A stretch of DNA of 64,000 nt from NCBI GenBank assembly GCA_947448735.1, contig CANFOS010000011.1, positions 28,874-92,873 on the forward strand, read 5' to 3'. Positions 8 to 63,459 of this stretch are shown here, in pieces (position 1 is the stretch's first letter; every line of letters begins with the position of its first letter). Both the position numbers and the translations under genes were made by a program. The notes under the pieces were generated by a model. It made no database searches, was not told the origin of the DNA, and saw only the letters and a list, made by a program, of their open reading frames with translations. The stretch is from Comamonadaceae bacterium (GTDB lineage: Bacteria > Pseudomonadota > Gammaproteobacteria > Burkholderiales > Burkholderiaceae_C).

Positions 8-3000
8 TTAGGCAGCCGGCTTGTCAAAGGGCAGTTCCACCGCACGCAAGTCGCGGCGGGTTTCAACCAGCACCAACGGACCTTCATTGGACACCATCAC
101 GGGTGCTCGCTCACGCGGCACATGTGCCGGTTTGGCCTCGGCAGCAATGGCGGCCTGCGCCTCTGCTATCTTGCCCGCGTCCGAGTTGATCCACTGAAGG
201 CCGGAGCCCTGTGCGACCTGAACCAGGTCTTGCAAGGGCAAGTCATAAGCCTTAACCTTGGGCAGGCCGCTGGCAGCCGATGCAAGGGCTGGCGAAGGCG
301 AGGGTGCGGGCGTGCTTTGGGGTGTGTGTGCTGGCACTGCAGGCAGAGCCGCATCAGCGGTGACAATAGCCGAGCCAACTGGCGCTGTAGATGCTACAAA
401 TTCAGGAGCTACTGGCGCGGGAATTTGCTGGTCTGCAGCCTCATTTGATGCCTGGTGTTCAGTCAAGGCAGCGGCCTCAGCACCGGTTTCACTGCGCTCA
501 GAACCTTCAGCGCGCTCGCGGCGATCGCGGCCGTAACGGTCACGGCTGCGGCGCTCGCGTGGCGCACGTTGTGGATTGGCCTGATCACCCGTTGTGTTGC
601 CTTCAGCAGGGGCATGAACGTCTCTGCTGACGGATGGCTCAGCCGGCGCGTCACCCGATGGCTGGCGATCTTCACGCGGCGCATCTTGAGAGTCGGTGCG
701 TGACTCTGCGCGTGGCTCACCACGGCGGTCATTTCGGCGACCGCGATCGCCACGCTCTCGGCGCGGCGCTTCCTGGCCCGCCGCGTCTGCTGCCCCGCCA
801 CCCATGGCGGCAGCCATGGCGGCTTTGTTGGCCAGTGCAATGTCTTGCTCGGTGGCATCCGCCGATGGGCGCGGCTCGTTGCTTCGCTCACCGCGTTCAC
901 GGCGTGGACGCTCCTGGCGACCGCCTTCGCGTGGCTCACGCGGCTCGCGCGGTGGGCGCGGCTCGCGTGGCTCCTGACCTTCAGCGCGTTGTTCGCCGCG
1001 CTGGTCATTGCGTGGTTCACCGCGCGGCTCAGCGCCCCGCGCATCAGGACCACGTTCCCGGCGCTCGTTGCTTCTACCCTCACCCCGGCCCTCGCCGCGA
1101 CCTTCCGAACGGTCACCGCGCTCGCCTCTGGCGCGGCCGCCACGGCGGCCATCACGGCCACCGCGTTCGCCGCGGCCATCGCGGGCAGCGTCACGGCGTG
1201 CGTCGCCTTCACGGTCATCTTTTTTCACATCACCGGCCGGCGCGGCGATCGGTTTGGCGGGCTCATCAGCGCCGCCAAACAAAGCTTTGAGCCAGCCGAA
1301 AAATCCCTTTTCCGCTGGCGCTACTTGTGCCGGTGTTGCAGCGGGTGCTGCCTTGGCGGCCACGTCAGGTTTGGCTTCAGCCTTGACCGGGGCGGCAGGT
1401 GCCAGGGGTTCGTGGGCATCTGGCAACACGCCCTTGATCACAGGCTCTTGCTTGTTGTGCTTTTCCTGGCTGCGACGGGTGACCAGCGTCGGGTCTTCCA
1501 TTTCTTCGGCCATCTTGTAGCTGGCTTCGATGTTGTCCAGGCGCGGGTCGTCGTGCTTCAGGCGTTCCAGGCGGTAGTTCGGTGTTTCCAGCGTTTTGTT
1601 TGGCACCAGCAGCACGTTGATGCGCTGCTTCATTTCGATTTTGCTGATTTCTGAGCGTTTTTCATTCAACAAGAAAGACGCCACATCCACCGGCACCTGG
1701 CACAACACCGAGGCCGTGCTGTCTTTGAGGGACTCTTCCTGAATGATCCGCAAGATCTGCAAGGCAGAGCTTTCGGTGTCGCGGATATGGCCAGAGCCAC
1801 CGCAACGCGGGCAGGGGATGGACGCGCCTTCGCTCAGCGTAGGGCGCAGGCGCTGGCGGCTCATCTCCATCAGGCCAAACTTGCTGATGGTGCCGAACTG
1901 GACTCTGGCGCGGTCTTGGCGCAGTGCATCACGCAGGCGGTTTTCAACATCGCGGCGGTTGCGTGACTCTTCCATATCAATAAAGTCAATCACCACCAGG
2001 CCGCCCAGGTCACGCAGGCGCATCTGGCGGGCCACTTCGTCAGCGGCTTCCAGGTTGGTTCGGGTCGCGGTTTCCTCAATGTCGCCGCCCTTGATAGCGC
2101 GCGCCGAGTTGACGTCGACGCTGACCAGCGCCTCGGTCTGGTCAATCACGATGGCGCCGCCAGACGGCAACTGCACGGTGCGGGCATAGGCCGACTCGAT
2201 CTGGTGCTCGATCTGGAAACGGCTGAACAGCGGTGCGTCGTCGCGGTAACGCTTGACGCGGTGCTCATGCTCGGGCATCACATGCGCCATGAACTGCTTG
2301 GCCTGCTCGTACACGTCGTCGGTGTCAAACAAGATGTCGCCGATGTCGCTGTTGAAGTAATCGCGAATCGCACGGATGACCAGGCTGGATTCCTGATAAA
2401 TCAGGAACGCGCCCTTGCCGCCCTTGCCGGCGCCTTCAATGGCCGTCCAGAGCTTGATCAGGTAGTTCAGGTCCCACTGCAGTTCTGGGGCGCTGCGGCC
2501 AATGCCGGCGGTTCGGGCAATGATGCTGGAGCCCTGCGGGTACTCCAGCTGGTCCATGTTTTCTTTCAGCTCGGCCCGGTCTTCGCCCTCGATACGGCGG
2601 CTCACGCCACCACCGCGCGGGTTGTTGGGCATCAGCACCACATAGCGGCCGGCCAGCGATACAAAGGTCGTCAGGGCTGCACCCTTGTTGCCGCGCTCTT
2701 CTTTTTCGACCTGAACCATCAGTTCCTGGCCCTCGCGGATCACATCATTGATGCGGGCCTGGCTGACCGACACACCTGGTGCAAAGTAGTTGCGCGAGAT
2801 TTCCTTGAACGGCAAAAAGCCGTGGCGGTCTTCGCCGTAATCCACAAAACAGGCTTCCAGCGATGGCTCAACCCGGGTCACCACCGCTTTGTAGATGTTT
2901 CCTTTGCGCTGTTCGCGCCCTTCAATTTCAATTTCGTAGTCGAGGAGTTTTTGTCCGTCAACAATCGCCAAACGGCGCTCTTCTGCCTGGGTGGCATTGA

Positions 3001-3016
3001 TCAGCATGCGTTTCAT
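8..3016 (-). CDS. rne: Ribonuclease E
   Basis: N-terminal [22 protein letters not shown]1 domain, DVNSAR and DFIDM catalytic motifs, CPRC Zn-link, long Arg/Glu-rich disordered tail; divergent from rluC. Confidence 0.98.
392..434 (+). repeat. 43-bp fixed-spacing element, copy inside rne
   Basis: TGCTAC-AAATTCA-GGAGC-N20-GGTCT. Confidence 0.8.
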
Positions 3017-3208
3017 GTGCGTACTCTTTCATCATCATTTCAACAGCTCAAAATGAGCCAACGATGCCAAAGCAGACGCTGTGCGAACGTGGGGAATTGC
3101 CGGAGAGCTTTGTAGCCAACTGGCCGACTGAAAAATCAGTCAGGCAGGAGCTTGAAGCGTAGGCGCGTGGATGGGGTGAGCAGGAGTCCGAATGAACGAA
3201 ACAAGCTT

Positions 3209-3251
3209 TGCTATTGTATTGGTAGCTGCTTGTGCACGTGAAACAGGGGCT
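3209..3251 (+). repeat. 43-bp element, rne-rluC intergenic
   Basis: TGCTAT-TGTATTG-GTAGC-N20-GGGCT. Confidence 0.85.
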
Positions 3252-3598
3252 GCAGGCTGATTCGTGCCTAAAAACGGGGCTAAAAAGCACCGCAGGCAGA
3301 AGGTGATCAGGTTGTACAGCGTTGTCATTGAAGTGCTATCGGTCAAAAAAGGCTTTTATCTCACCAAGATCCGCAGGCAGCCCCTGAATGCAAGGAGGCT
3401 ACCCGCTTGGGTATTCCGTAGTTTGTTTCGCAAAACGTCGACTCGTTTCCCGGTGTCAACCCGCTTTGGCGGAGTCACAGGTGTTTGCATCGACCTTCTG
3501 GTGCTGTGTGATCAAGCTTCTCATGGGCCTTTTCAGGCTGGTTTGATGGGCGTGGACTAAACTCCAAGCAAATCAACAACTTAACGAACACAACGCCA

Positions 3599-5322: not shown

Positions 5323-5338
5323 TAAAGAGGGTTCAGGC

Positions 5339-5704
5339 ATGGACGATTTGCAGCCCCTTTGCAATTCCAGTGATCTGGCTGAAGGCGGTCAGGCGGTGCC
5401 TTTTGATGTGGTCTATGCAGGCCAGACCTGCCGGGCGTTTGCTGTCAGGTTCAAAGGCCGGGCGCATGCCTACCTGAACCGCTGCACACACGTGGCGATG
5501 GAACTGGACTGGCAGCCCAACCGGGTATTTGACGCCACTGGTCAGTGGCTGCTGTGTGCCAGCCACGGCGCGGCTTATGTGCCCGACAGTGGCCAGTGCG
5601 CGGGCGGGCCTTGCCAGGGCGGGCTGGTCAAAATCCATCTTGTCGACAAAGACGGTGTCGTTTGTTGGCAAACGGCTTACAACCTCAAACCGCCGGCCTT
5701 TTGA
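5339..5704 (+). CDS. Rieske [2Fe-2S] ferredoxin
   Basis: CTH...CASHG Rieske ligands; start moved to ATG 5339 after AGAGG/AGG. Confidence 0.85.
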   Translation: MDDLQPLCNSSDLAEGGQAVPFDVVYAGQTCRAFAVRFKGRAHAYLNRCTHVAMELDWQPNRVFDATGQWLLCASHGAAYVPDSGQCAGGPCQGGLVKIHLVDKDGVVCWQTAYNLKPPAF

Positions 5705-5723: not shown

Positions 5724-6806
5724 ATGACTGAAAACAATCGCCCAGACTCTGAAAACCAATCGTTTGATGCTGAGAATGCCTCGAAAATTCGATCCAATAT
5801 GCCCTCAGACCAATCTAAACCTGGGCCAGATGCTCCTGAAATAGTAGCTCCTAAAAAATCAAAAGCGGACCCGATAGACACGCCAGGCTGGGAGCGCAAT
5901 ACCCTTGAAAGGCTGGCTTTTGCATCCCTGAACGAGCAAAAGGCCACGCGCCGCTGGAAAGCCTTTGTCCGGATGTCCTGGCTGCTGTTTTTTGTGGTGC
6001 TGGTCTGGATGGCCTTGCACCGGGGCACGCCCGCGACCAGCGCCAGCGCGCCGCACACCGCAGTCGTTGAGATCAAAGGCGAAATCGCCGCCGGATCCGA
6101 TGCCAGCGCCGAGTTCATCAATGCCGCTTTGAAGGCCGCTTTTGAGGACGATGGCGCCAAAGCGGTCGTGCTGCTGATCAACTCCCCCGGCGGCAGCCCG
6201 GTGCAGGCCGGCATGATGAACGACGAAATTCGCCGCCTGAAAGCCAAACACAAAAAGCCGGTCTACGCCGTGGTGGAAGAAACCTGTGCTTCGGCGGCTT
6301 ACTACATTGCCGTGGCGGCAGACCAGATTTTTGTCGACAAAGCCAGCATTGTTGGCAGTATTGGCGTGCTGATGGATGGTTTTGGTTTTACCGGGCTGAT
6401 GGACAAGCTGGGTGTTGAGCGCCGACTGTTGACAGCTGGCGAAAACAAGGGCTTTTTAGATCCTTTCAGCAAGCAAACTGACAAGCAGCGCGAGTTTGCC
6501 TTGACCATGCTCAACCAGATTCACCAACAGTTCATCAGCGTCGTCAAAGCCGGGCGCGGCGTACGCCTGAAAGAAACACCAGAAATGTTCAGCGGCCTGT
6601 TCTGGACCGGTCAGCAAGCCATTGAACTGGGCCTGGCCGACAAACTGGGTACGCTCGAATACGTGGCACGCGAAGTGGTCAAACAAGAGGATATCGTTGA
6701 CTACACCCGCCGTGACAACGTGGCCGAGCGCCTGGCCAAAAAGTTTGGTGCGGCCGTGGGCGAAGGCGCGATCAAGGCCGTCAGGGCCTTACCCGCCATT
6801 CGCTGA
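5724..6806 (+). CDS. sppA: S49 family signal peptide peptidase SppA
   Basis: INSPGGSP, CASAAYYIA, GSIGV motifs, one TM helix; start at ATG 5724 inferred. Confidence 0.9.
   Translation: MTENNRPDSENQSFDAENASKIRSNMPSDQSKPGPDAPEIVAPKKSKADPIDTPGWERNTLERLAFASLNEQKATRRWKAFVRMSWLLFFVVLVWMALHRGTPATSASAPHTAVVEIKGEIAAGSDASAEFINAALKAAFEDDGAKAVVLLINSPGGSPVQAGMMNDEIRRLKAKHKKPVYAVVEETCASAAYYIAVAADQIFVDKASIVGSIGVLMDGFGFTGLMDKLGVERRLLTAGENKGFLDPFSKQTDKQREFALTMLNQIHQQFISVVKAGRGVRLKETPEMFSGLFWTGQQAIELGLADKLGTLEYVAREVVKQEDIVDYTRRDNVAERLAKKFGAAVGEGAIKAVRALPAIR
5807..5849 (-). repeat. 43-bp element, inside sppA N-terminus
   Basis: AGCTAC-TATTTCA-GGAGC-N20-GGTCT. Confidence 0.8.
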
Positions 6807-8242: not shown

Positions 8243-8782
8243 ATGACCCGACAGCAAGCCTTGCACAGCCTCAACCTGCAAACCCTGGCAACCAGCGGTG
8301 TACCGCTGGTTGAAACTACGCCGCTACACAATTTGGAGCGCCTCGCACAGGAATCCATTGGGCCGGCGCCAGACGCGATCGTCAACTGGCAGGCTTTGGC
8401 CGAGCTTCGCGCAGGCTCGACCGGCCAAACAGACATGTGGCTGCATCTGCAGGCCGAGGCGTCTGTGCCGCTGACCTGTCAGCGTTGTATGGCCGTTGCC
8501 CAGACGCCTTTGCAGGTGAACCAGTGGTACCGATTCGTGGCCACTGAAGAGATTGCCATGGCGCAAGATGATGCGTCGCAGGAGGATTTGCTCGTCATGA
8601 CGCCGCAGTTTGACCTGTTGGCGCTGCTCGAGGACGAGCTGCTGATGGCGCTGCCGCTGGTGCCCATGCACGGCGAATGCCCGGTATTGCCAGCCTTTAG
8701 CGCGGGAGCCATTGATGTGCCTGACGATGGCCCTGGCAAACCGAATCCGTTTGCCGCGCTGGCCCAGTTAAAGAAAAGGTGA
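8243..8782 (+). CDS. yceD: DUF177/YceD ribosome accumulation protein
   Basis: CQRC motif, EDELLMALP, NPFAAL; directly upstream of rpmF. Confidence 0.9.
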   Translation: MTRQQALHSLNLQTLATSGVPLVETTPLHNLERLAQESIGPAPDAIVNWQALAELRAGSTGQTDMWLHLQAEASVPLTCQRCMAVAQTPLQVNQWYRFVATEEIAMAQDDASQEDLLVMTPQFDLLALLEDELLMALPLVPMHGECPVLPAFSAGAIDVPDDGPGKPNPFAALAQLKKR

Positions 8783-10350: not shown

Positions 10351-11328
10351 ATGGCACCTTATTCACGCATTACCGGGACCGGCAGCTACCTGCCGCCACA
10401 GCGGTTGACCAACGCCGATTTGGCAACACGCCTTGCAGCAACAGGCGTCGAAACGTCCGACGAATGGATTGTGGAGCGCACCGGCATCCATGCCCGCCAC
10501 TTCGCGGCACCTGACGTGTCGTGCAGTGACCTTGGATTTGAGGCGGCGAAAAATGCCCTGCAAGCTGCTGGTTTGCAAGCCAGCGACATCGACCTCATCA
10601 TCGTGGCAACCTCAACGCCAGACATGGTGTTTCCTTCAGCCGCCTGCATTTTGCAGAGCAAGCTGGGCATCGCTGGTTGTCCGGCTTTTGACATTCAGGC
10701 GGTTTGCAGCGGGTTTGTCTACGCGCTGACCGTCGCTGACGCGATGATCAAAACCGGGGCTGCCAGCAAGGCGCTGGTGATTGGTGCCGAGGTTTTCTCC
10801 CGCATCCTTGACTTTTCAGACCGCACCACCTGCGTGCTGTTTGGCGATGGTGCAGGCGCTGTGGTGCTTGAAGCATCCGATACACCCGGCATTCTGGCCA
10901 GCGATTTGCACGCCGACGGCAAACATGTGGGCATTTTGTGTGTTCCGGGCCATGTGTCGGGCGGCAAGATCATCGGTGACCCGTTGCTCAAAATGGATGG
11001 TCAAGCCGTGTTCAAGTTGGCTGTCGGCGTTCTTGAAAGTGCGGCCCGTGCTGCCCTGGCAAAAGCCAACATGACGGATCAAGACATTGACTGGCTGATT
11101 CCGCATCAGGCGAATATTCGCATCATGCAAAGCACGGCCAAAAAGCTCAAGCTTCCCCTCGAAAAACTCATCGTGACCGTGGACCAGCACGGCAACACCT
11201 CAGCGGCTTCAATTCCGCTGGCGCTGGATGCGTCAGTGCGCAGCGGCAAAATTAAAAAAGGTGACACGCTGATGCTCGAAGGCGTGGGCGGTGGCTTTAC
11301 CTGGGGCGCAGTTCTTCTCAATTATTGA
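10351..11328 (+). CDS. fabH: Beta-ketoacyl-ACP synthase III
   Basis: AVCSGF, PHQAN, GNTSAAS, GGGFTWG. Confidence 0.98.
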
Positions 11329-11329
11329 G

Positions 11330-12640
11330 ATGCAATCCCTGACGAGAATTGGCAACCGCAAGCGCAGCCTGATTTTTGCGGGTTTGACGCTCATCGCCAT
11401 TGCCGCTGCGGGCTACAAAATAGCTCGCCGGGAGCCAGCGCCAACTTTTGTTCCACCATCCGTCAAGGCCCTGCCGTCACATGGCCACCATGCTTTTGCT
11501 GGCCAACCTTTGCAGCATGAGCCGCAATTTGTCTCCAGCCAGCCTGGTCAGGCTGTGCATGCTCCTTCGGTTGTCGAACTCAAAGATGGCAGTTTGCGGG
11601 CGGTATGGTTTTCAGGTTCTCGGGAAGGTGCAGGGGATGTCACCGTACAAACCGCTGTCATGAACGCTGCCACGGGCCAGTGGGGCGGCGAGACAACACT
11701 GGTTGACCGCCAGCAATTGCAGCGTGGTTTGTGGCGCTACATTAAAAAAATCGGAAACCCAGTCATTGCACGCCTACCCGACGGCTCACTTCATTTGTGG
11801 ATGGTCAATGTGTCACTCGGCGGATGGGCCGGCAGTGCGATCTCTTGGACGCGCTCTGTGGACGACGGTGCGACCTGGAGCGCCCCCAGGCGACTGGTGA
11901 CCTCGCCTTTTTTGAATATCAGCACACTCGTCAAAGCTGCGCCTGTGGCAATGGCCGATGGCTCGGTTGGTTTGCCGGTCTATCACGAGTTCATCACCAA
12001 GTTTGCCGAGGTATTGCACATCAGCGCCCAAGGCCAGGTGACGGATAAAACGCGGATCCCCGGCAGTCATTCCAGCTTGCAGCCCGTCGTGTTGGTCGCC
12101 AGCCCGGTCAAGGCCAATGCCTATATGCGGGCCGGCCAGGGCGGCCGGGTGGTCATGTCTGCCACGAACGATGCGGGTCAAACCTGGGTGCCAGCCCGGT
12201 CGCTGAACCTGCCCAACCCTGACTCCGCAATAGCGGGTCTTGTCGCCAGCTCGGGTGACAAGTGGCTTGCGTTAAACCCGACCGCTGCGGGTCGCCCATC
12301 GCTGGCGCTGCTCAAGGCCACCAGCGACGGCAGTTTTGACACCGCCAAGACGCTGTTTGTGGAGGGTTCCGCCGAAGCATCACAGGCGGGCAATAGCCTG
12401 ACGATCGCCGATCACTCGGCTTTGTTGGGCCGTGAACTCAAGGCGCAAGGCGCGAGCGATGCAGATATTCAGGCCTACATCGGTAGTGCGGCAAGGCAGC
12501 TGTGTGGCCCATCGACCTGTGCAAAAGAGTTTTCATACCCGTTCTTGCTGCAAACGCGAGACGGCGCCATCCACCTGGTTTACACATGGCATCGCAGCCG
12601 CATCAAACATGTCCGGATGGACCATGCCGTCCTTGACTGA
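11330..12640 (+). CDS. Membrane-anchored BNR/Asp-box beta-propeller protein (sialidase-like)
   Basis: N-terminal TM, Asp-boxes SVDDGATW and TNDAGQTW, C-terminal FSYPFLLQ...IHLVYTW; starts 2 bp after the fabH stop. Confidence 0.75.
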   Translation: MQSLTRIGNRKRSLIFAGLTLIAIAAAGYKIARREPAPTFVPPSVKALPSHGHHAFAGQPLQHEPQFVSSQPGQAVHAPSVVELKDGSLRAVWFSGSREGAGDVTVQTAVMNAATGQWGGETTLVDRQQLQRGLWRYIKKIGNPVIARLPDGSLHLWMVNVSLGGWAGSAISWTRSVDDGATWSAPRRLVTSPFLNISTLVKAAPVAMADGSVGLPVYHEFITKFAEVLHISAQGQVTDKTRIPGSHSSLQPVVLVASPVKANAYMRAGQGGRVVMSATNDAGQTWVPARSLNLPNPDSAIAGLVASSGDKWLALNPTAAGRPSLALLKATSDGSFDTAKTLFVEGSAEASQAGNSLTIADHSALLGRELKAQGASDADIQAYIGSAARQLCGPSTCAKEFSYPFLLQTRDGAIHLVYTWHRSRIKHVRMDHAVLD

Positions 12641-13250: not shown

Positions 13251-14210
13251 TTGAAACCATTTGCTTTTGTATTTCCGGGTCAAGGCTCTCAATCGGTCGG
13301 TATGTTGGATGCTTGGGGCGATCACCCTGCGGTCGCCCAAACATTGCAAGAGGCATCTGATGCGCTGGGGCAGGATGTGAGCCGATTGATTAAAGAGGGC
13401 CCCAAAGAAGAGCTGGCGCTGACGACCAATACGCAGCCCGTGATGTTGGTGGCGGGTGTTGCGGCTTACCGGGTGTGGATGGCCGAGGCAGGTGTGGCGC
13501 CGGCTTGCGTTGCCGGGCATTCGCTTGGCGAATACGCAGCTTTGGTGGCCAGCGGCGCATTGACATTGACGCAAGCCGCGCCGCTGGTGCGCTTTAGGGC
13601 CCAGGCCATGCAAGACGCCGTGCCCGTAGGCGCAGGTGCGATGGCAGCCATTTTGGGTTTGGATGCTTCGAAAATAATAGCTGTTTGCGCAGGTATTACT
13701 GGGGCTACCGCAGAGTTTGGTTTGCAAAATGGCGAAGTGGTGGAGGCTGTTAATTTCAACGATCCGCTGCAAACCGTGATTGCAGGCAGCAAGGCCGCCG
13801 TTGACAAGGCCTGCGAACTGCTCAAAGCCGAAGGTGCCAAACGCGCCTTGCTGCTTCAGGTCTCCGCGCCATTTCACTCCAGCCTGATGAAGCCCGCTGC
13901 CGAAAAGCTTCAAGAAAAACTGGCGCAAACCTCCTTCGCCGCCCTGCAGATTCCGCTGATCAACAATATTGACGTGGCGGTGCAAACCGATGCAGCGGGG
14001 ATTCGCGATGCCTTGTACCGCCAGGCTTTTGGTGCTGTGCGCTGGGTGGAATGTGTCCAGGCCATGAAAGCACGTGGTGTCAGCCATGTTGTTGAATGTG
14101 GGCCTGGCAAAGTACTGGCGGGTCTGGTCAAGAGAATCGATGCCGACTTGACAGGAGCCCCTTTGTTTGACCCCGCCTCCATGGCTCAAGTGAAAGAATT
14201 GCTGGTATGA
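13251..14210 (+). CDS. fabD: Malonyl-CoA:ACP transacylase
   Basis: FVFPGQGSQ, GHSLGEY, VSAPFHS; TTG start with GGAG RBS. Confidence 0.98.
   Translation: MKPFAFVFPGQGSQSVGMLDAWGDHPAVAQTLQEASDALGQDVSRLIKEGPKEELALTTNTQPVMLVAGVAAYRVWMAEAGVAPACVAGHSLGEYAALVASGALTLTQAAPLVRFRAQAMQDAVPVGAGAMAAILGLDASKIIAVCAGITGATAEFGLQNGEVVEAVNFNDPLQTVIAGSKAAVDKACELLKAEGAKRALLLQVSAPFHSSLMKPAAEKLQEKLAQTSFAALQIPLINNIDVAVQTDAAGIRDALYRQAFGAVRWVECVQAMKARGVSHVVECGPGKVLAGLVKRIDADLTGAPLFDPASMAQVKELLV
13664..13706 (+). repeat. 43-bp element, inside fabD
   Basis: TGCTTC-GAAAATA-ATAGC-N20-GGGCT. Confidence 0.8.
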
Positions 14211-18447: not shown

Positions 18448-19479
18448 ATGTTTTACCGGTCATTTATTCCTCTAGCCCTAGTATTATCGATGCTAGTAGC
18501 TCCTGAATTTGTAGCATCCCAAACTCTCGGCTCGAACCCCTCCGTCGCTGCCATCGCCACGGTTCAGGACGCCAAAGACCTCAATGATTGGCTGCGCCGC
18601 ATGCATGAGGCTTCCAAAAACCGCGCCTATATCGGGACTTATGTGGTTTCCTCGGGCGGTCAATTGCAAAGCGCAAAAATCTGGCACGTCTGTGAGGCGG
18701 GGCAGCAAACCGAACGAGTCGAAACCCTGACGGGCGCGCCGCGTTCAACTTTTCGGCACAACGAGCAGGTCGTGACTTTTCTGCCTGACCAAAAGCTGGT
18801 ACGCCATGAAAAACGTGAAGCGTTGAATTCGTTTCCCGAGATTGTTCAGTCTGCCGATCACCGCATTTCTGACTTTTATAAACTCAAACACGAAGGCACA
18901 GAGCGCGTTGCGGGGGTGGATGCCGACGTTGCTGTTCTGGTGTCCAAAGATGCGATGCGCTTTGGCTACCGTGTCTGGACCGAGCAGAAAAAAGGCCTGG
19001 TGGTGAAATTGCAGACGCTCGATGTCGATGGCCGGGTTCTTGAGCAGGCTGCGTTTTCCGAGCTTCTGATGGACGCGCCTGTGAAGATGGACAAACTGAT
19101 ACAGATGATGGGCAAGGTGGACGGCTTGCGCGTGGAACACCCCGCGGTGGTCAAGACTACAGCCAGCGCACAGGGCTGGTATTTGCCTTCATCGGTTGCT
19201 GGATTCAAACCCATGAGTTGCTACAAGCGGTCTGCTTCGGCGGGTGCTGCCTCCCTTGCCGAAGACTCCATGCACTGGGTGTTTTCTGATGGGCTGGCAT
19301 CGGTGTCGCTGTTTGTGGAGTCTTACGACCGCCAGCGTCACAGCAAAGAGTCCGGCATGTCCATGGGAGCAACGCATACCCTGACGCGGCACATCGGCAG
19401 TTACTGGTTGACGGCCATGGGTGAGGTGCCGATGGCCACCCTCAAGCAGTTTGCCAATGGCCTTGAACGTAAAAAATAG
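18448..19479 (+). CDS. rseB: RseB/MucB periplasmic regulator
   Basis: Signal peptide, WVFSDGLASVSLFVE, GEVP motifs. Confidence 0.92.
   Translation: MFYRSFIPLALVLSMLVAPEFVASQTLGSNPSVAAIATVQDAKDLNDWLRRMHEASKNRAYIGTYVVSSGGQLQSAKIWHVCEAGQQTERVETLTGAPRSTFRHNEQVVTFLPDQKLVRHEKREALNSFPEIVQSADHRISDFYKLKHEGTERVAGVDADVAVLVSKDAMRFGYRVWTEQKKGLVVKLQTLDVDGRVLEQAAFSELLMDAPVKMDKLIQMMGKVDGLRVEHPAVVKTTASAQGWYLPSSVAGFKPMSCYKRSASAGAASLAEDSMHWVFSDGLASVSLFVESYDRQRHSKESGMSMGATHTLTRHIGSYWLTAMGEVPMATLKQFANGLERKK
18474..18516 (-). repeat. 43-bp element, inside rseB signal peptide
   Basis: TGCTAC-AAATTCA-GGAGC-N20-GGGCT. Confidence 0.85.
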
Positions 19480-28515: not shown

Positions 28516-28562
28516 AATCAGCCCAGGATGTTCAGGCCACCTTGACCCTAAAATAGGGCTGC

Positions 28563-28605
28563 AGGCCAATGAATATATGAATAAGAAGCTCCTGATTAAA
28601 TAGCA
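28563..28605 (-). repeat. 43-bp element, acpS-nagZ intergenic
   Basis: TGCTAT-TTAATCA-GGAGC-N20-GGCCT. Confidence 0.85.
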
Positions 28606-32537: not shown

Positions 32538-32580
32538 TGCTATTGATTAAGTAGCTGCTGGCCCAATTAAATATTGGGCT
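32538..32580 (+). repeat. 43-bp element, yehW-serC intergenic
   Basis: TGCTAT-TGATTAA-GTAGC-N20-GGGCT. Confidence 0.85.
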
Positions 32581-32624
32581 GCAGGCGATTTTTGCTAAAT
32601 TTTCTGGCGAATGTTTGTCGCTGT

Positions 32625-33740: not shown

Positions 33741-34050
33741 GGGTGTTCTTGTTGAGCAGGCGGAAAACTTTCGATTCGTTCCGACGGCGTTTGCTGGTTA
33801 TCTTAGCAATTCAGCCGCTGGCGTTGGGCCGCTCTTTGTTGCACAGGCGCATGTCGGGTTATGCGTCGCTTTCCTGATCTACAGGGCTTTCATTCGTGCT
33901 CATGAATAAAGCTACAAACTTTGCGACTCACAGCATCAGACCGCATTAAGCGTCAAAAGATGCTGAGACGCGAAGGAAAATTTGGAAAATCTGAAGTTTT
34001 GTTGATCCATCACGAAGCTGCTTGCCCAAGTATCCGTTCGGCTAGAGCAG

Positions 34051-34059
34051 TTATTCACA
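34051..34059 (+). promoter_or_regulatory. DnaA-box-like site
   Basis: TTATTCACA matches TTWTNCACA. Confidence 0.35.
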
Positions 34060-34166
34060 GCCTAAAACGGTTCAAAAAGATGGCTTTAAACAAAAAATGC
34101 ACTCTTCAAACCACCTCAACCCGTTCTAACTCTCAAAACGACGTCTCACTTAAAAAACAAACTTAC

Positions 34167-34209
34167 AGCCTAATACTTACGTAGACGATTAGCTACTAAA
34201 AACGTAGCA
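34167..34209 (-). repeat. 43-bp element, downstream of the M48 peptidase gene
   Basis: TGCTAC-GTTTTTA-GTAGC-N20-AGGCT. Confidence 0.8.
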
Positions 34210-34230
34210 TTTGTAATTGATGCGGGCTTT

Positions 34231-39196: not shown

Positions 39197-39311
39197 GGGA
39201 AATGCCTCGAAAATTGCTTGAAGCGGGTTAGAAAAAGGGTTGGAGGAAAATAAAGCCCAAAAGTGCCCGACAGCATTGAAATGGCCTGTTGAGGGTGTTC
39301 TTTCGTGTTCT

Positions 39312-39354
39312 AGGCCAATGAATATGTGGGTAAAAAGCTATAAAAAAAGTAGCA
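39312..39354 (-). repeat. 43-bp element, downstream of accD
   Basis: TGCTAC-TTTTTTT-ATAGC-N20-GGCCT. Confidence 0.85.
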
Positions 39355-40728: not shown

Positions 40729-40775
40729 CTTGAAAAAGCTCTTTTCACCCGACTTCAGTTGCCTTTTAGGCCTCC

Positions 40776-40818
40776 AGCCCCATCAAAACGTGCGAAAGCT
40801 GCTCTATCAATCGTAGCG
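40776..40818 (-). repeat. 43-bp element, downstream of trpA
   Basis: CGCTAC-GATTGAT-AGAGC-N20-GGGCT. Confidence 0.8.
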
Positions 40819-40971
40819 ACTGAAGCGCGAACGATTCCAGGAATTCGTATTTTCGGGATGACGTGCCAGCCGTACGAAGCGCAGCACGTCTTCACGCGCA
40901 CCAGCAGTTGAGGATGGCAAGCACCACTCAATGAGGCCATGCGTCCGAAAAATGAATTTGCGGACCTGCCC

Positions 40972-43094: not shown

Positions 43095-43797
43095 GATTGA
43101 AGGCTTTCTCTGCAAGTTGGTCGTCTGCAGCGCGAACCGCTGCGACAAATTGACTGATCAGCTCGGGGCTTTTGATTCCCTTGGAAATCTCGACGCCCGA
43201 GCTCACATCGACAGCCAGCGTTTTACCGCGTGGCCGGACTTGCAATATGCCGTCGCCCACGTTTGCAGGTGTGAGTCCACCAGACAAAACGAGGTGAGCA
43301 TTGACGCTTGGAGGAAGGAGTGACCAATTGAATGTTTTTCCGCCGCCGCCAAAACCTTCGACATGTGCGTCTAAAAGAATGGCTTGGGCTGATTTGAAGT
43401 CGTTGGTGTATTTTACGAGATCGAAATTGAGTCGTGCGTTTGGGGTTTCTTGATTCAGCGGGATGCGCGCCGCTTTGATGAACGGCCGGGCACTCTTTTG
43501 GGCTATGTGCAGGCACTCATCGGGCGTTTCATCACCATGAAATTGCAGCAAAGCACCCGAAATACCTTGGCAGGTAGCTATTATCTCTGTAGCGGGCGCA
43601 TTGACGAAAAGCAGCACGGGCGTCACGAACGGCGGCAGCCTGGCTGCCAGCTCAGCCGCTCGTGCCGGGCTGACGTAACGGGCGCTGCTCGCATACAGCA
43701 CAAAGCCAATCGCGTCGACCCCTGCGGCTACGGCGGCGTCAACGTCCTGTTCGCGGGTCAGGCCGCAGATTTTGATTCGGGTTCTGGCTTGATTCAT
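43072..43797 (-). CDS. trpF: Phosphoribosylanthranilate isomerase
   Basis: [33 protein letters not shown]. Confidence 0.96.
43552..43594 (-). repeat. 43-bp element, inside trpF
   Basis: CGCTAC-AGAGATA-ATAGC-N20-GTGCT. Confidence 0.7.
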
Positions 43798-48749: not shown

Positions 48750-49847
48750 TCAGCCCAGAGCCTTGACCACCGCGTCACCCATCTCTCGCGTGCCGACACG
48801 GGTCGTGCCTTCGCTGTAGATGTCGGGGGTGCGCAGGCCCTGGCTGAGCACGGCGTCTACAGCCTTCTCAATCCGCGCAGCAGCCTCGTTCTGGTTCAGG
48901 CTAAAGCGCAGCATCATGGCAGCGCTCAAAATCGTGGCCAGTGGATTTGCCACGCCTTTGCCTGCAATGTCCGGCGCACTGCCGTGGCTGGGCTCATACA
49001 GGCCCTGGTTTTTGGCGTTCAGGCTGGCTGAGGGCAACATGCCGATAGAGCCGGTCAGCATGGCTGCGGCGTCAGACAAGATGTCGCCAAACATGTTGCC
49101 AGTGACCACCACATCGAATTTTTTAGGCGCCTTGACGAGTTGCATGGCCGCGTTGTCAACGTACATGTGGTCCAGCGCGACGTCGGGGTATTGCAGGCCA
49201 ATCTCGGTCACCACGTCTTTCCAGAGCTGAAAGGTCTCCAGAACGTTGGCTTTGTCAACGCTGGTGACGCGCCCGGGGCCCTGGTCAGGGCCACGTTCTG
49301 TAGCACGTTTGCGTGCCGCCTGAAAAGCGACATGTGCAATCCGCTCAATCTCGGGCCGCGAATAGCGCATGGTGTCAAAAGCTTCCTCGCTGCCGGGGAA
49401 GTGCCCGTCTACCGCCACACGCCTGCCGCGTGGCTGGCCAAAGTAAATGTCGCCGGTCAGCTCGCGGATGATCAAAATATCCAGCCCGCTGACCAATTCG
49501 CGTTTCAAGCTCGACGCATCAACCAGCTGCGGGTAGCAGATCGCCGGGCGAAAGTTGGCAAACAGGCCGAGGTTTTTACGCAGGCCCAAAATGGCCTGCT
49601 CCGGGCGCAGCGGGCGGTCGAGCGTGTCGTATTTCCAGTCGCCGACGGCACCGAAGAGCACCGCATCGGCTTCTTTGGCAAGCTTCAAGGTCGCGTCAGG
49701 CAGCGGATGGCCGAAAGCCTCGTAGGCGGCACCACCGACGAGCGCGATCTCGGTTTCAAACTTCAGGTCTAAAACCTTCAACACCTTGACCGCTTCAGCG
49801 ACGATTTCAGTGCCAATGCCGTCACCGGGCAGGATTGCGATTTTCAT
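48750..49847 (-). CDS. leuB: 3-isopropylmalate dehydrogenase
   Basis: [30 protein letters not shown]. Confidence 0.98.
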
Positions 49848-49860: not shown

Positions 49861-49903
49861 TACTATTATTTTTATAGCTGCCCATCCAGGTTTTGATTGG
49901 GCT
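49861..49903 (+). repeat. 43-bp element, leuD-leuB intergenic
   Basis: TACTAT-TATTTTT-ATAGC-N20-GGGCT. Confidence 0.8.
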
Positions 49904-49942
49904 AGCCTCATTTGGCGGGGTGAAAAGGCGAAAAATGCGAAA

Positions 49943-52049: not shown

Positions 52050-52976
52050 TTAAGTGTCTTGGTCTGCGGTCAGGTGCTCAACCAGAAGTCGCGCCGTGAC
52101 CGGCAGGGTTGAAAAGTCCCGCGCCACCAGATGGATGCGCCGCAATGCCCAGTCGTCCAGCAGCTCAATCGACGCCAGCTCGCCCACGCCATTCATCAGC
52201 TCAAAGGCGCGTTGCGGCATCACGCCCACACCCAGGCCGTTGTGAATCATCCGGCACACGGCGTCCAGGCTGGTCACGTGAATACGCAGTTTGATCGTGC
52301 GCCCAACGGCGGCGGCCGCCTGCTGCATGGCGATGTAAATCGAGCTGTTGGTGTGCAGGCCGACCTGGTCGTAGTCTAGCGATGCTTCAAAATAAATAGC
52401 TGCTTGTTCAGATAAAACATGGCCTCTGGGCACAATCAGTACCAGCTTGTCGGTCCGGTAGGGCAAACTTTGCAGCTCGCCCACGCCGTCAGCGACGTTG
52501 CAAATGCCCAGATCCGCAGCACCCTCCGCCACGGCCCTGACGATCTCGGTGCTCAGGTGCTCTTCCAGGTCAATTTTGACTTCTGGGTGGGTGCGGATGA
52601 ACGCGCCCAGGTCTTCCGGCAAAAACTGGACGATCGCCGAAATGCTGGCGTGCACACGGACATGGCCGCGCACACCGTCGGCGTACTCGCTCAGTTCGCC
52701 TTGCATTTTCTCCAGGCTGAACAGCACTGAGCGCGCATGGTGCAACAGACTTTCGCCTGCCGGCGTCAGGCCCACGCCGCGCGTATGGCGGTAGAGCAGG
52801 GCCGTGCCCAGAGTCGCTTCCAGATCGCTCAGCCGTTTGCTGACCGCCGACGCCGCAATAAATTCCCGCTCGGCAGCCTTGCCAATGCTGCCCAGCTCGC
52901 ACACCGCGACAAAGAGCTGAAGCGAGGTCAGGTCGATGCGGCGGGCAAAGTTGCGTTCTGAGCTTTTGAGGGTCAT
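52050..52976 (-). CDS. LysR-family transcriptional regulator
   Basis: HTH (LQLFVAVCELGSI...SAVSKRLSDLE), LysR substrate domain; start approximate. Confidence 0.93.
   Translation of the reverse strand: MTLKSSERNFARRIDLTSLQLFVAVCELGSIGKAAEREFIAASAVSKRLSDLEATLGTALLYRHTRGVGLTPAGESLLHHARSVLFSLEKMQGELSEYADGVRGHVRVHASISAIVQFLPEDLGAFIRTHPEVKIDLEEHLSTEIVRAVAEGAADLGICNVADGVGELQSLPYRTDKLVLIVPRGHVLSEQAAIYFEASLDYDQVGLHTNSSIYIAMQQAAAAVGRTIKLRIHVTSLDAVCRMIHNGLGVGVMPQRAFELMNGVGELASIELLDDWALRRIHLVARDFSTLPVTARLLVEHLTADQDT
52383..52425 (+). repeat. 43-bp element, inside the LysR gene
   Basis: TGCTTC-AAAATAA-ATAGC-N20-GGCCT. Confidence 0.8.
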
Positions 52977-53151
52977 GAGGCTTGAATGCATCGTCAAACA
53001 CGATGAGAGCTCATTTTGACTTACGCGAAACCTAAAGGCCATCGCCTTTCGCGATGTCGGACGTGCCCAAAACCGCTGCTCTTGAACGATCAGGTCAAAA
53101 ATCTAGGGTTTTAAACCAAAAAGACCTTTTTCAGCTGTGTTTTAGGGCTTT

Positions 53152-53194
53152 AGGCCACAGAACCTGTGCGCGAGCTGCTATTGATTAAATAGCA
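53152..53194 (-). repeat. 43-bp element, between the gltA terminator and the LysR gene
   Basis: TGCTAT-TTAATCA-ATAGC-N20-GGCCT. Confidence 0.85.
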
Positions 53195-53197
53195 AAT

Positions 53198-60578: not shown

Positions 60579-61360
60579 CAGTTCAGTGTGTTGTGATAGT
60601 GGTGCGTGTCGGTGCGGTAGTAGCCCCGGCGCAGCTCCATCGGCACATTTTGATAGGTGTAGGCAATCCGCTCCACGCTCAGAAGCGGTGTGCCGCGCTC
60701 TACTTTTAATAGCTGCTCGCGCCCGTCGATGGCTGACTCGGCGCGTATTTTCTCTTCGGCTCGCACCATGCGCATGTTGAATTCAGTTTCAAACAGCGCA
60801 TACATCGGGCCGTGGTAATCGGCCAGGCGCTCGGCGGTCAGGCCTTTGAATGGGGCTGCGGGCAGCCAGATGTCTTCAACAATTGTGGGGACGCCCGCAA
60901 AACTGAGCACCCGCCGCGCTTGCAACACGGCGTCGCCACTGCGCAGAGCCAAAGCCCTTGCCACATCGGCAGTGGCCCGGGCGCGGCGGCAATCGATGAT
61001 CTCGCGCTGGGCTGGGCCTTCGCTGCCTGGTGTGCCGCTGTCGGGCACCAGCTTGAGGAAGCGGAACTGCACATGCTGTTCGGCATGCGTTGCCACGAAA
61101 GTGCCCTTGCCCTGGCGGCGCACCACCAGGTTGCTGGCGGCCAGCTCGTCAATGGCTTTGCGCACCGTGCCCTGGCTGACGCGGTAGCGGGTGGCCAGGT
61201 CCATTTCAGATGGAATCGCTTCGCCGGGCTTCCATTCGCCGGACTGCAGACTTTGCAAAATCAGCGCCTTGATCTGCTGGTACAGAGGGCTGAAGGCGGG
61301 CGTGGCGGTGTTTGACTCGTCGGCTGACGAGGGGGATGCGAAGGAAGGAATAGCTGCCAT
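60578..61360 (-). CDS. GntR/HutC-family regulator with UTRA domain (SdhR-like)
   Basis: PLYQQIK, IPSEMDLA, VSQGTVRKAIDEL, RRQGKGTFV; divergent from mdh. Confidence 0.93.
   Translation of the reverse strand: MAAIPSFASPSSADESNTATPAFSPLYQQIKALILQSLQSGEWKPGEAIPSEMDLATRYRVSQGTVRKAIDELAASNLVVRRQGKGTFVATHAEQHVQFRFLKLVPDSGTPGSEGPAQREIIDCRRARATADVARALALRSGDAVLQARRVLSFAGVPTIVEDIWLPAAPFKGLTAERLADYHGPMYALFETEFNMRMVRAEEKIRAESAIDGREQLLKVERGTPLLSVERIAYTYQNVPMELRRGYYRTDTHHYHNTLN
60696..60738 (+). repeat. 43-bp element, inside gntR
   Basis: CGCTCT-ACTTTTA-ATAGC-TGCTCGCGC...-TGACT at the fixed distance. Confidence 0.65.
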
Positions 61361-61383
61361 AGGGGGTCTTCGGGGAAGCTTTA

Positions 61384-61409: not shown

Positions 61410-61498
61410 AATTGACGCATGGCAGCATTCGGCGCTAAAATCTTTGGCTGTTGTTGCTGCATGGCAACCGTTTTACTCACTTCCTGAAAGCTCCCATC

Positions 61499-62485
61499 AT
61501 GACCAAAAAACCCGTCCGCGTTGCCGTTACCGGTGCAGCCGGCCAAATTGGCTACGCGCTGCTGTTTCGTATTGCCTCCGGCGAAATGCTGGGCAAAGAC
61601 CAGCCCGTGATTTTGCAATTGCTGGAAGTCCCGGTTGAGGGTCCACAAAAAGCCCTCAAAGGCGTGATGATGGAACTCGACGACTGTGCCTTTCCTCTGC
61701 TGGTGGGCATGGAAGCGCACAGCGATCCGATGACGGCTTTCAAAGACACCGACTACGCACTGCTGGTGGGGTCCCGCCCACGCGGCCCGGGCATGGAGCG
61801 GGCCGAGTTGCTGGCCGTGAACGGCGCGATTTTTATCGCCCAGGGCAAGGCGCTGAACGCCGTGGCCAGCCGCAACGTCAAGGTGCTGGTGGTCGGCAAC
61901 CCGGCCAACACCAACGCATGGATCGCCATGAAAAGCGCGCCCGATCTGCCGCGCAAAAACTTCACAGCCATGCTGCGCTTGGACCACAACCGCGCGGCCA
62001 GCCAGGTTGCGGCCAAAACCGGCAAGGCTGTGGCCGACATCGAAAAACTCTGCGTGTGGGGCAACCATTCGCCCACCATGTACGCTGACTACCGCTTTGC
62101 CACCATCAAGGGCGAAAGCGTTGCCGCCATGATCAACGACCAGGACTGGAACGCCAACACCTTTTTGCCAACCGTTGGCAAGCGCGGCGCGGCCATCATT
62201 GAAGCGCGCGGCGTGTCGTCAGCCGCATCGGCCGCCAACGCCGCCATCGACCACATGCGCGACTGGGCACTGGGCACCCACGGCAAGTGGGTCACCATGG
62301 GTATCCCATCGGGCGGCCAGTACGGCATTCCTGACGGCACCATGTTTGGTTTCCCTGTGACCTGCGAAGGCGGCGAGTACAAACTGGTTGAAGGCCTGGC
62401 CATTGATGAATTCAGCCAGACCTGCATCAACAAGACATTGGCAGAGTTGCAAGGCGAGCAAGACGGCGTCAAACACCTCCTCTAA
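61499..62485 (+). CDS. mdh: Malate dehydrogenase
   Basis: [34 protein letters not shown]. Confidence 0.98.
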
Positions 62486-63459
62486 TGGCTCATCCCAGAG
62501 AGGTTCTTCTCGGCGCTCAGGCTGCAACTGGTTTCTTGCCAGTTTGCGACCACTACAGTGGCGTAGAGACGCGCATGCGCAAAAGCCTGCAGTTGCAGGC
62601 CGACATGTGCGCTGAGTTCGGCGCTTGCGTTTTTGACGTCACGCTGGACTGCGAAGACGGTGCGCCCGTGGGCGGCGAGGCCGACCACGCCGCCATGGTG
62701 GTGGCCCTGGCCACCCAGGCCAGCCCCAAGGCCCGCGTGGCAGTGCGTGTCCATCCCATCGATCATCCTGCTTTTGAGGCTGACGTAGCCACCATTGCCG
62801 GCACGGTGGGCGACAGGCTTTGCCACATCATGGTGCCTAAAGTCGAGTCGGCGGGCGACATCATGCGGATTGAAAAAGCCCTGAACGATGCGCATGCAGG
62901 GCATCTGCCCCTGCACGTGTTGATTGAATCGCCCGCTGCTGTGCACCGCGCTTTCGAGATTGCCGCGCATCCGCGTGTGCAGTCACTCAGCTTTGGTCTG
63001 ATGGACTTTGTATCGAGCCATGGCGGTGCCATACCTGCGCATGGCATGACCAGTCAGGGTCAGTTCGACCACCCGCTGGTGGTGCGCGCCAAGCTGGAGA
63101 TAGCCTCGGCCTGCCACGCCAACAGCAAAACACCATCGCATTGCGTGGTGACAGAATTTAACGATGCCGCCGCCATGACGATGGCCGCGCGCCGGGCTTT
63201 TCACGAGTTTGGCTACACCCGCATGTGGAGCATCCACCCGAACCAGATTCGTCCGATTCTGGCGGCCTTCGCACCGACTGAAGGTGAGATTGAAGATGCT
63301 ACAAGAATAATAGCTGCAGCCGCTCGTGAAGAGTGGGCTCCGATCAGCTTCGAGGGTAAATTGCACGACCGCGCCAGTTATCGCTATTACTGGCAGGTCT
63401 TGGAGCGTGCGCACCAGACGGGCCGTGACTTGCCAGCCGAGTCACAGATCTACTTTTAG
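62485..63459 (+). CDS. CitE/HpcH-family acyl-CoA lyase
   Basis: TLDCEDGAP, VPKVES, IESP, FGLMD, WSIHPNQI; 1-bp overlap with mdh stop. Confidence 0.88.
   Translation: MAHPREVLLGAQAATGFLPVCDHYSGVETRMRKSLQLQADMCAEFGACVFDVTLDCEDGAPVGGEADHAAMVVALATQASPKARVAVRVHPIDHPAFEADVATIAGTVGDRLCHIMVPKVESAGDIMRIEKALNDAHAGHLPLHVLIESPAAVHRAFEIAAHPRVQSLSFGLMDFVSSHGGAIPAHGMTSQGQFDHPLVVRAKLEIASACHANSKTPSHCVVTEFNDAAAMTMAARRAFHEFGYTRMWSIHPNQIRPILAAFAPTEGEIEDATRIIAAAAREEWAPISFEGKLHDRASYRYYWQVLERAHQTGRDLPAESQIYF
63297..63339 (+). repeat. 43-bp element, inside the CitE-like gene
   Basis: TGCTAC-AAGAATA-ATAGC-N20-GGGCT. Confidence 0.8.

Follow-up and report, generated by a model that had tools for sequence, protein, structure and literature searches.

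The DNA considered here, referred to as the window, is a stretch of 64,000 nucleotides from a Comamonadaceae bacterium (GenBank assembly GCA_947448735.1, contig CANFOS010000011.1, positions 28,874 to 92,873 of the forward strand), a lineage from a lake-water metagenome whose nearest relatives in the genome collection are metagenome-assembled genomes of Polaromonas, with FabD identities of no more than 86%. Dispersed through the window, between genes as well as within them, are copies of a short element whose conserved blocks stand at fixed distances from each other. A sequence-only reading had described it as a 43-bp motif (TGCTAY-N7-RKAGC-N20-GGNCT), with 16 copies and one more, degenerate copy. 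Here we show that the element is real, that the full unit is about 56 bp long and that its copies are old and positionally conserved, and we suggest, tentatively, that it is akin to known palindromic repeats of bacterial chromosomes and is kept because a protein recognizes it in duplex DNA.

Copies of the Element in the Window

The core of the motif, GCTAY-N7-RKAGC, has 22 strand matches (15 sites) in the window, versus 0.24 expected from dinucleotide shuffles. Two profiles were used for detection, an independent hidden Markov model (HMM) built from 74 copies, all in genomes other than that of the window, and an intergenic-only profile built from the eight intergenic copies of the window alone. 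Over the window plus relatives (1.54 Mb of fragments; individual loci of relatives are designated below by L numbers), with reversed sequence as decoys, the independent HMM returns 159 matches at E≤0.01 versus none in the decoys, and the best decoy match in the reversed window is at E=0.18. The element is real and far above chance, with 13 copies in the 64 kb of the window, and with a density of about one per 5-10 kb across this genome and its relatives.

The 16 sequences listed by the sequence-only reading all have correct coordinates and strands, and they divide, as had been stated, into eight on each strand and into eight intergenic and eight intragenic copies, the latter hosted by genes for RNase E, an S49 peptidase, FabD, RseB, TrpF, a LysR regulator, a GntR regulator and an HpcH-family protein. 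Membership in the family is another matter, as the independent HMM detects 12 of these sequences at E<0.003 (3209, 13664, 53152, 32538, 40776, 392, 28563, 18474, 52383, 5807, 49861, and 39312), along with an unlisted copy at 8323, leaves two at the borderline (63297, E=0.006; 60696, E=0.007, as a partial alignment), and gives no support to 43552 (E=0.13), to 34167 (E=0.63) or to the degenerate copy at 59898. Despite its poor score, 34167 belongs to the family, being a decayed copy whose orthologs in L082, L084, and L085 are well formed. The intergenic-only profile finds five of the intragenic copies, in the genes for S49 (E=1.7e-8), FabD (E=1.8e-6), RNase E (E=2.3e-5), LysR (E=6.3e-5), and RseB (E=2.6e-4), while those in the TrpF, GntR, and HpcH genes are not significant with it.

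In the order of their positions, copy 392 (392..447, plus strand) lies antisense inside rne (RNase E by Pfam; 8-3016, minus), in the C-terminal non-domain region (E=5.5e-7), and copy 3209 (3209..3264, plus; E=5.7e-12) is non-coding, in the divergent spacer upstream of rne, with orthologs upstream of rne in L017, L018, L020, L025, L047, L049, L052, and L073 (Rhodoferax and other genera). Copy 5807 (5794..5849, minus; E=1.3e-4 with the independent HMM) is antisense in the variable N-terminal tail of the S49 (SohB-like) peptidase, is read in frame as ...GPDAPEIVA, and has orthologs in L001-L003, L017, L018, L031, and L047. The unlisted copy 8323 (8323..8378, plus; E=7.1e-4) is sense inside yceD (8243-8782, assigned by Pfam), N-terminal to the Pfam domain, with orthologs in L001, L002, L003, L006, and L031. 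Copy 13664 (13664..13719, plus) is sense inside fabD, and copy 18474 (18461..18516, minus; E=2e-5 with the independent HMM) is antisense in the signal-peptide codons of rseB. Copy 28563 (28550..28605, minus; E=5e-6) is non-coding and lies in the spacer from acpS to a GH3 (nagZ-like) gene, with the downstream ATG 15 nt away from its 5' end and in the opposite orientation.

Around serC, copy 32538 (32538..32593, plus; E=8.9e-8) is non-coding and begins 3 nt past the stop codon that ends an ABC permease gene, in the spacer that separates this gene from the convergent serC, and the decayed copy 34167 (34154..34209, minus), about 20 nt past the stop of a YgjP-like gene, has kept the palindrome and lost the GCGC block. 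A partial copy (34014..34056, plus) consists of the 3' half only (E=2e-4 with the intergenic-only profile, 0.66 with the independent HMM); it forms with 34167 the sole close convergent pair in the window, and it has counterparts in L082 and L084. Two copies follow genes in the orientation of the gene, copy 39312 (39299..39354, minus; E=2.6e-3, its ortholog in L083 at E=4.4e-8) 14 nt past the accD stop, and copy 40776 (40763..40818, minus; E=2.3e-7, its ortholog in L083 at E=1.3e-10) downstream of trpA, both non-coding.

Farther on, copy 49861 (49861..49916, plus; E=3.2e-4), also non-coding, occupies most of a 95-nt spacer, and, by the open reading frame (ORF) map, 14 nt separate its 5' end from the ATG of an oppositely oriented gene (48750-49847, minus). 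Copy 52383 (52383..52438, plus; E=8.5e-5) is antisense in a LysR-family regulator gene (52050-53042, minus; by Pfam), in the substrate-binding domain, and the non-coding copy 53152 (53139..53194, minus; E=2.5e-8) lies in the spacer from the end of the citrate synthase gene to the start of this LysR gene (by Pfam), in the orientation of both. As to the borderline copies, 63297 (63297..63352, plus; E=0.06 with the intergenic-only profile) is sense in an HpcH/CitE-like gene, and 60696 (60696..60751, plus), aligned over model positions 10-31 only, is antisense in a GntR/UTRA regulator gene. The candidate 43552 (43539..43594, minus), inside trpF, is supported by neither profile (E=0.39 with the intergenic-only one) and is probably a look-alike helix in TrpF. 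The copies thus occur in both orientations relative to their host genes.

Anatomy and Rigid Spacing

An alignment of 59 copies gives a unit of about 56 bp, TGCTAY-N7-RTAGCTGCTTGCGCA-N10-GGGCT-nnAGGCC-nATTTG, with a 5' edge that is sharp at position 1 and with conserved AGGCC and ATTT blocks beyond the GGNCT box, so that the 43 bp originally described fall short of the 3' end. The parts of the unit are a short palindrome, GCTAY-N7-RTAGC, a longer imperfect palindrome (positions ~17-49, CTGCTTGCGCA...GGGCT..AGGCC), preceded by RTAG (positions 14-17), and a T-rich end. The 20 nt that had been taken as variable open with a conserved block, TGCTTGCGCA, and the CA dinucleotide that had been noticed there represents the last two bases of this block.

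The fixed spacing that had been claimed is borne out. All of the 145 matches at E≤0.001 align gap-free, a result that by itself is not proof of the absence of indels, as a local aligner truncates instead of opening gaps, and so the offset between the halves was scored separately: of 100 sites found by the 5' half alone, 79 have the 3' block where the canonical spacing puts it, one has it displaced by +1, and 20 have none that can be detected. As these sites mostly overlap the seed set of the profile, the independence of the test is partial. A 1-nt insertion occurs in one ortholog, that of site 32538 in L085.

Age, Distribution, and Lack of Mobility

The element is found in loci of Polaromonas-like, Rhodoferax, Acidovorax, Simplicispira, and other Comamonadaceae, and it is almost missing from plasmids, with only two weak, unannotated matches (Rhodoferax and Delftia) among 72,556. 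Positional conservation is extensive. One example is a set of four copies, those in the S49, yceD, fabD, and rseB genes, common to the window and L001-L004. Another comes from the junction of fabH and fabD, where about 28 species, spread over several genera, carry a copy; the spacer there is a mere 10 nt in genomes of the Limnohabitans kind, which seem to lack the element at this site. A third example is a ladder of divergence at serC (from 99 to 87% protein identity), along which every covered orthologous site carries the non-coding copy of the window: sites 28563, 32538, and 34167 in L082, L084, and L085, and, in L083, 28563 and 32538, plus the sole covered sites of 39312 and 40776. In L082-L085, the orthologous copies retain the blocks, while the adjoining spacer accumulates substitutions and indels, and, overall, copies are found at orthologous sites down to about 75% DNA identity and across genera. 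Among strains, as represented by fragmentary metagenome contigs, the sole event seen is an imprecise 76-nt deletion that removes most of 39312.

The sequence-only reading had held that these are not recent transposon copies, and we concur. The similarity of low-information filler among the paralogs of the window matches a column-shuffle null (P=0.11 and 0.27), giving no sign of recent copying, and the filler-defined subfamilies that were considered (28563/39312 and 5807/49861) show no excess over this null. As for the marks of a MITE, TGCTAY... at one end and ...ATTTG at the other do not form terminal inverted repeats, and no target-site duplication is seen, the flanking columns holding no more than 0.24 bit. 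In 1.5 Mb of sampled fragments no transposase is encoded between inverted copies, the genes there being those for PIN, APH, epimerase, and YgjP-like proteins, and no RAYT gene is seen. Inverted doublets of the REPIN type are absent, the copies being singletons. A comparison with empty sites downstream of the S49 gene was uninformative, as the regions are not syntenic. The copies in the window are old, have been passed on vertically, and have stopped multiplying. Their origin may be an old non-autonomous mobile element kept by selection, one of the candidates of the sequence-only reading; a mobile ancestor with a palindrome is plausible, especially since copies of the Acidovorax type are near-perfect hairpins followed by a T-run.

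Some local arrangements may be recorded here. In L085, a YgjP-like gene lies between two inverted copies (5603-5654, minus, and 6289-6342, plus), the upstream one having no counterpart in the window. In L086, a gene for an rve-family transposase (11244-12275) adjoins serC, where other relatives carry copy 32538. In L003, downstream of the S49 gene (3536-3580), there is a short derivative, GCGCTAC-TTTCA-GTAGC-TTCAGGCTCAAATC, with a loop of 5 nt instead of 7 and with the middle of the element missing; judged by its sequence, it may be an internally deleted copy.

Copies Inside Genes, Three of Them Native Segments

Copies inside genes are not insertions in the three cases that can be judged by comparison. 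In FabD, compared with PDB FabD sequences and with 15 relatives, the 43-bp core encodes D-A-x-K-I/V-I-A-x-C-A..., a segment that is native family-wide and aligns to the Burkholderia and Escherichia coli proteins, the clade of the window differing only by a 9-nt gain just past the core. In FabH, element positions 1-17 are the codons of the conserved C-terminus, AVLLxL, plus the TAG stop, and the C-terminal peptide is identical in species without the rest of the element. In RseB, the signal peptide has 25 residues with or without a copy (ALLAMNYVAAQ in the comparison lacking one). The copies in FabD, the FabH C-terminus and RseB are native segments, and an in-frame insertion of the kind known from Rickettsia is excluded for all three, no length having been added over the element core. 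The case of the S49 peptidase is ambiguous, as the length of its cytoplasmic N-terminal tail ranges between 35 and 59 residues in close relatives, irrespective of the copy.

One codon phase is common to seven of the eight listed intragenic copies. In the six supported coding copies, rare codons are frequent, with GTA used for 6 of 8 Val (7.4% in the background), GCT and GCA for 14 of 16 Ala (33%), and ATA for 3 of 7 Ile (5.9%), a result with some circularity, DNA match having been the means by which the copies were identified. A comparison that avoids this circularity is that of codon identity at conserved residues, which in the four genes compared is 64% inside the element versus 52% outside it (p=0.005, an optimistic value because the relatives compared share ancestry).

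Two observations on sequence variants belong here. The rne copy (392-413) and the rseB copy (18495-18516) are identical over 22 of 22 nt (TGCTACAAATTCAGGAGCTACT). The copies of the TCAGGAGC variant that were seen, all but 28563, are antisense in coding DNA and read Ala-Pro-Glu.

Folding and Transcript Signals

The consensus is an imperfect palindrome, and individual copies do not maintain pairing. The Watson-Crick fraction of all candidate column pairs equals that expected from independent columns (for the pair 6-14, 0.47 versus 0.51, with mutual information near 0), and for the fabH-fabD copy RNAalifold, run on 28 orthologs, yields no common fold. Pairing along the named helix is 61.3% versus 60.9% in shuffles, a level reached by 191 of 500 shuffles. 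A covarying second hairpin in the 20 nt described as variable, an impression gained by eye, is ruled out by the all-pairs statistics, by RNAalifold and by the pair-count controls. At the same time, pairing is 61% in the true register versus 36-43% in slid registers, and it is because this register pairs better while the covariation tests are null that we describe the consensus as palindromic and the pairing as not maintained.

In terms of predicted stability, positions 17-52 have a mean z of about -1.2 against shuffles, -2.1 in the high-GC genera and -0.75 in the window, and, when whole units are folded, most copies of the window have z≥0, with 32538 alone clearly structured (minimum free energy z=-2.6). 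Copies of the Acidovorax type, in turn, form a long, GC-rich, near-perfect hairpin with TTTTT directly after. Searches of the window gave no Rfam match at the gathering score, 25 terminator sites versus 25.6 expected, and promoter counts at the level of chance, with the copies picked up by neither the terminator scan nor the promoter scan.

Relation to Known Repeats and Motifs

Parts of the element have been seen before. A survey of spaced motifs reported separately two unexplained "potential novel motifs" (BMC Genomics 2017;18:27, PMC5217627), of which one, ATAGCT(N)22CAAAAG, has 125 copies in Polaromonas naphthalenivorans CJ2 (101 intergenic, 18 genic, and 6 overlapping a gene end, with 34 between convergent genes), and the other, GCTTAT(N)5AAGCG, has 114 copies in Acidovorax ebreus TPSY, most of them no more than 50 bp from a gene, convergent spacers having 44, co-oriented spacers 59, and divergent spacers 4; 81-94% of the copies are intergenic in these two genomes (PMC5217627). 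In the 1.54-Mb sample, 7 of 8 occurrences of GCTTAT(N)5AAGCG fall within copies of the element, and of 43 matches to a relaxed form of the other motif, RTAGCT(N)22CWNNAG, 36 stand in register with element positions 14-19 and 42-47, the CJ2 genome lying outside the sample. These overlaps make both published motifs pieces of the 56-bp element. The survey has neither the 56-bp unit nor the cross-genus family, the orthologous conservation or the overlaps with coding sequence (PMC5217627). The statement that this is not a named family was therefore correct, although two fragments had been published as unexplained spaced motifs.

Among the named repeats, the repetitive extragenic palindromes (REPs) of Enterobacteria and Pseudomonas, which have RAYT transposases, with the mosaic elements that they form (BIMEs), are similar in being short chromosomal repeats with hundreds of copies, rare on plasmids, in being mostly extragenic, at the 3' ends of genes and scarce in divergent promoter regions (PMC5217627), and, less clearly, in having an imperfect palindrome after a G/A-TAG head (the criterion for REPs being a palindrome of 20-40 nt and a GTAG/GTGG head). 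The copies described here differ in being single, mostly without a stable hairpin in this genome and without near-identical recent copies, and also in having a second small palindrome, a rigid multi-block spacing and a large share inside genes, as recoded native segments. The ERIC sequences of Enterobacteria, also known as intergenic repeat units (IRUs), are likewise imperfect palindromic dispersed repeats, conserved across genera, in either orientation, at many orthologous intergenic positions and with no transposase known. However, ERIC is about 127 bp long, unrelated in sequence, found only where intergenic DNA is transcribed and presumed to be under constraint as an RNA structure, while our element is without structural covariation and extends into ORFs.

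BRE, a short repeat of Bordetella and Comamonadaceae that is commonest in Polaromonas (Hot et al., 2011, PMC3110155), is also mostly intergenic, with some copies overlapping ORF ends and some within coding sequence, but its sequence, TTTTTTTGGCCGCGGGCCGCCCAAGGCAAAAAAGCCCCC..., is different, about 90 bp long, GC-rich, and often in tandem (PMC3110155). Identity with BRE is rejected, as the best blastn-short match of three BRE sequences against all the copies is at E of 0.06 over 11 nt. A separate repeat of the BRE type (GGCCCCCTCGGGGGGCAG...GCGCAACCGTGGGGC), matching the BRE core, is present in the window at approximately 34795-34862 and at 26495-26516, with length heterogeneity at 34810-34823 in metagenome contigs.

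Small repeats that coexist with coding sequence are known from Rickettsia (RPE), where they are read in frame, and from mycobacteria (MIRU), where, as in the copy at the fabH stop, they occupy operon spacers and overlap the stop and start codons of the neighbors. RPEs, unlike the copies described here, are true insertions that add residues, and MIRUs are tandem units of the variable-number repeat type. The element is best filed as a short dispersed palindromic repeat, unusual in its rigidity, its age and its overlap with coding sequence, unnamed and partly seen before.

What May Keep the Element

The reading that fits best, and that we hold tentatively, as possible rather than probable, is that the element is a REP/ERIC-like repeat that is kept as a site of fixed geometry, read by a protein on double-stranded DNA. 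It resembles REP and ERIC in that its consensus is palindromic and headed by RTAG, and in that copies favor gene ends, are scarce in divergent spacers and keep to chromosomes. A protein as the reader, proposed already by the sequence-only reading, is suggested by the rigid spacing, by the conservation of blocks without compensatory change, by the presence of both transcriptional orientations, by persistence at orthologous sites where neutral DNA is scrambled, and by the mark left on synonymous sites. In such a scenario, a host protein or complex would recognize, in duplex DNA, the conserved blocks with their set distances, and copies would be retained for this reason, mostly at gene boundaries, just past stops and in intercistronic and convergent spacers. 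Coding DNA would be drawn toward the pattern of the element where the native peptide is compatible with it, as in the FabD helix, the FabH C-terminus with its stop, and the RseB signal peptide, and coding copies would have arisen by substitution or by short-patch conversion rather than by insertion. Gyrase and IHF are among the proteins that bind to REPs, and topological or architectural binding of this kind may be guessed, by analogy, as the role of our element.

A more far-reaching form of this proposal is that the copies make up a chromosome-wide architectural code, in which a conserved Comamonadaceae DNA-binding protein or complex would need a rigid 56-bp site every few kilobases, selection for this density would be strong enough to recode native segments, such as the three just named, against codon preference and with some amino-acid change, and the consensus would co-evolve with the protein between genera. 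We see this as rather unlikely.

Several points weigh against the reading that we favor. The reading by a protein, the action on DNA and the role of the element are all things that we infer. The decay of copies, in the form of the GCGC loss in 34167 and of the 76-nt deletion at 39312 in one strain, shows that constraint is not universal. Conserved orthologous copies could also reflect homogenization among copies. The rare-codon result carries the circularity mentioned above, and the excess of conservation at synonymous sites is modest, coming from four genes in four related, non-independent genomes. For the copies of the Acidovorax type, the hairpin with its T-run equally fits a role in RNA, such as that of a terminator.

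Among the alternatives, the one that survives best, itself unlikely, is that the copies are functionless and decaying relics of an ancient REP- or MITE-like burst in a Comamonadaceae ancestor, and that their conservation reflects survivorship or detection bias. This would agree with the RTAG head ahead of a long palindrome in the consensus, the lack of recent copying, the visible decay of 34167, the deletion allele at 39312, and the 20 of 100 sites where only the 5' half can be detected. But neutral intergenic DNA of 56 bp should be unrecognizable between genera whose synonymous sites are saturated, and the blocks persist; indels are nearly absent within copies, the coding copies are not insertions, and synonymous sites are more conserved inside the copies than outside.

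A role at the level of RNA, in which transcribed hairpins would end, protect or process transcripts (as terminators, REP-like 3' stabilizers or RNase sites), meets the difficulty that compensatory changes are lacking, that most copies of the window fold no better than shuffles, that the terminator scan is at chance level and misses the copies, that no Rfam family is matched, and that orientations are mixed, including antisense copies in genes and copies head-on at 14-15 nt from start codons, with the fabH-fabD copy at an operon junction. We regard such a role as unlikely in general, slightly more so than descent from a defunct burst, despite the many non-coding copies that begin 0-20 nt past a stop, in the orientation of the gene and with a T-rich end (32538, 39312, 34167, fabH-fabD), the terminator-like look of 32538, with its z of -2.6, and of the Acidovorax-type copies, and the published enrichment in convergent and depletion in divergent spacers (PMC5217627).

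Concerted evolution without function, by ectopic short-patch gene conversion that keeps copies alike and overwrites compatible coding segments, appears doubtful to us. It would account for coding copies of native segment length and element-like DNA, for the 22 nt shared by 392 and 18474, and for the resemblance of the fabH-fabD copy of each genome to the other copies of the same genome (rho=0.51, p=0.005), a lineage effect that may be nothing but drift in base composition. The columns of the paralogs in the window are statistically independent, with no shared patches beyond chance, and tracts of 56 bp that are about 60-70% identical are poor substrates for homologous recombination.

Signals for DNA uptake or recombination built up by molecular drive, as are the uptake sequences of Pasteurellaceae (USS) and Neisseriaceae (DUS), have much in common with our element: both orientations, origin in place within coding DNA in a restricted set of tolerated frames, conservation at orthologous sites, lineage-specific versions or "dialects" of the consensus, and, here, a chromosomal rather than plasmid-borne location. 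USS and DUS, however, have an exact core of 9-12 nt at about one per kb, and the element is a long, degenerate composite of 56 bp; none of its 7-9-mers is among the top over-represented words of the window, the best-conserved 9-mers, GTAGCTGCT and ATAGCTGCT, occurring only twice each in the 64 kb. With no link found in the literature searched between Comamonadaceae and uptake sequences, and with no over-represented short exact core, we disfavor this possibility, which the sequence-only reading had raised, as very improbable.

Operators of a LysR-type (or other) transcription factor, suggested earlier from the T-N11-A within GCTA-N9-TAGC, with a second conserved region lying two to three helical turns off, can be practically dismissed, because any GCTA-N9-TAGC palindrome contains T-N11-A, and hundreds of copies per genome (114-125 as published; PMC5217627), half of those of the window inside ORFs, others between convergent genes and only 4 of 107 in divergent promoter spacers in A. 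ebreus (PMC5217627), with a promoter signal not above chance, are unlike a set of operators.

Significance

By joining two published and unexplained spaced motifs into one defined, family-wide element of 56 bp, and by supplying a profile that detects it without decoy matches, this analysis could enable those who annotate genomes of Polaromonas, Rhodoferax, Acidovorax, and allied bacteria of fresh water and soil to mask or label hundreds of sites per genome. As the element is old, positionally stable, rigid, free of RNA-type covariation, and has left a mark on coding DNA, it would make good bait for a chromosomal DNA-binding factor, and it presents a tractable case for studying the degree to which protein-coding sequence can be molded by a non-coding sequence requirement. 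Should it be a decaying relic, it would still serve as a phylogenetic marker and as a caution for motif-discovery pipelines.

Other Features Near the Copies

The spacer between serC and the YgjP-like gene (33741-34230 in the window) is strain-variable: in L083 (9077-9927) it contains genes for a PhdYeFM antitoxin and a PIN toxin, in L082 (9554-10002) it contains two small ORFs, and the window has neither arrangement. Directly upstream of the 5' end of copy 40776, approximately 100 nt of the window (40856-40956) are missing from the 94%-identical L083 (at about 2463-2470). For the S49 peptidase gene, the listed ORF start (5529, TTG) precedes the likely real start near 5724 (MTENNRPD). Finally, accD (39632-40237, minus) is frameshifted in the window at a short A/T run (39656-39661), where frame 0 ends in ...LAKK and the remainder of AccD, to AVV*, is in another frame, while the close relative L083 encodes an intact AccD of 290 residues; several metagenome contigs have an extra T after 39656, so that the frameshift represents either an assembly error or a strain variant.

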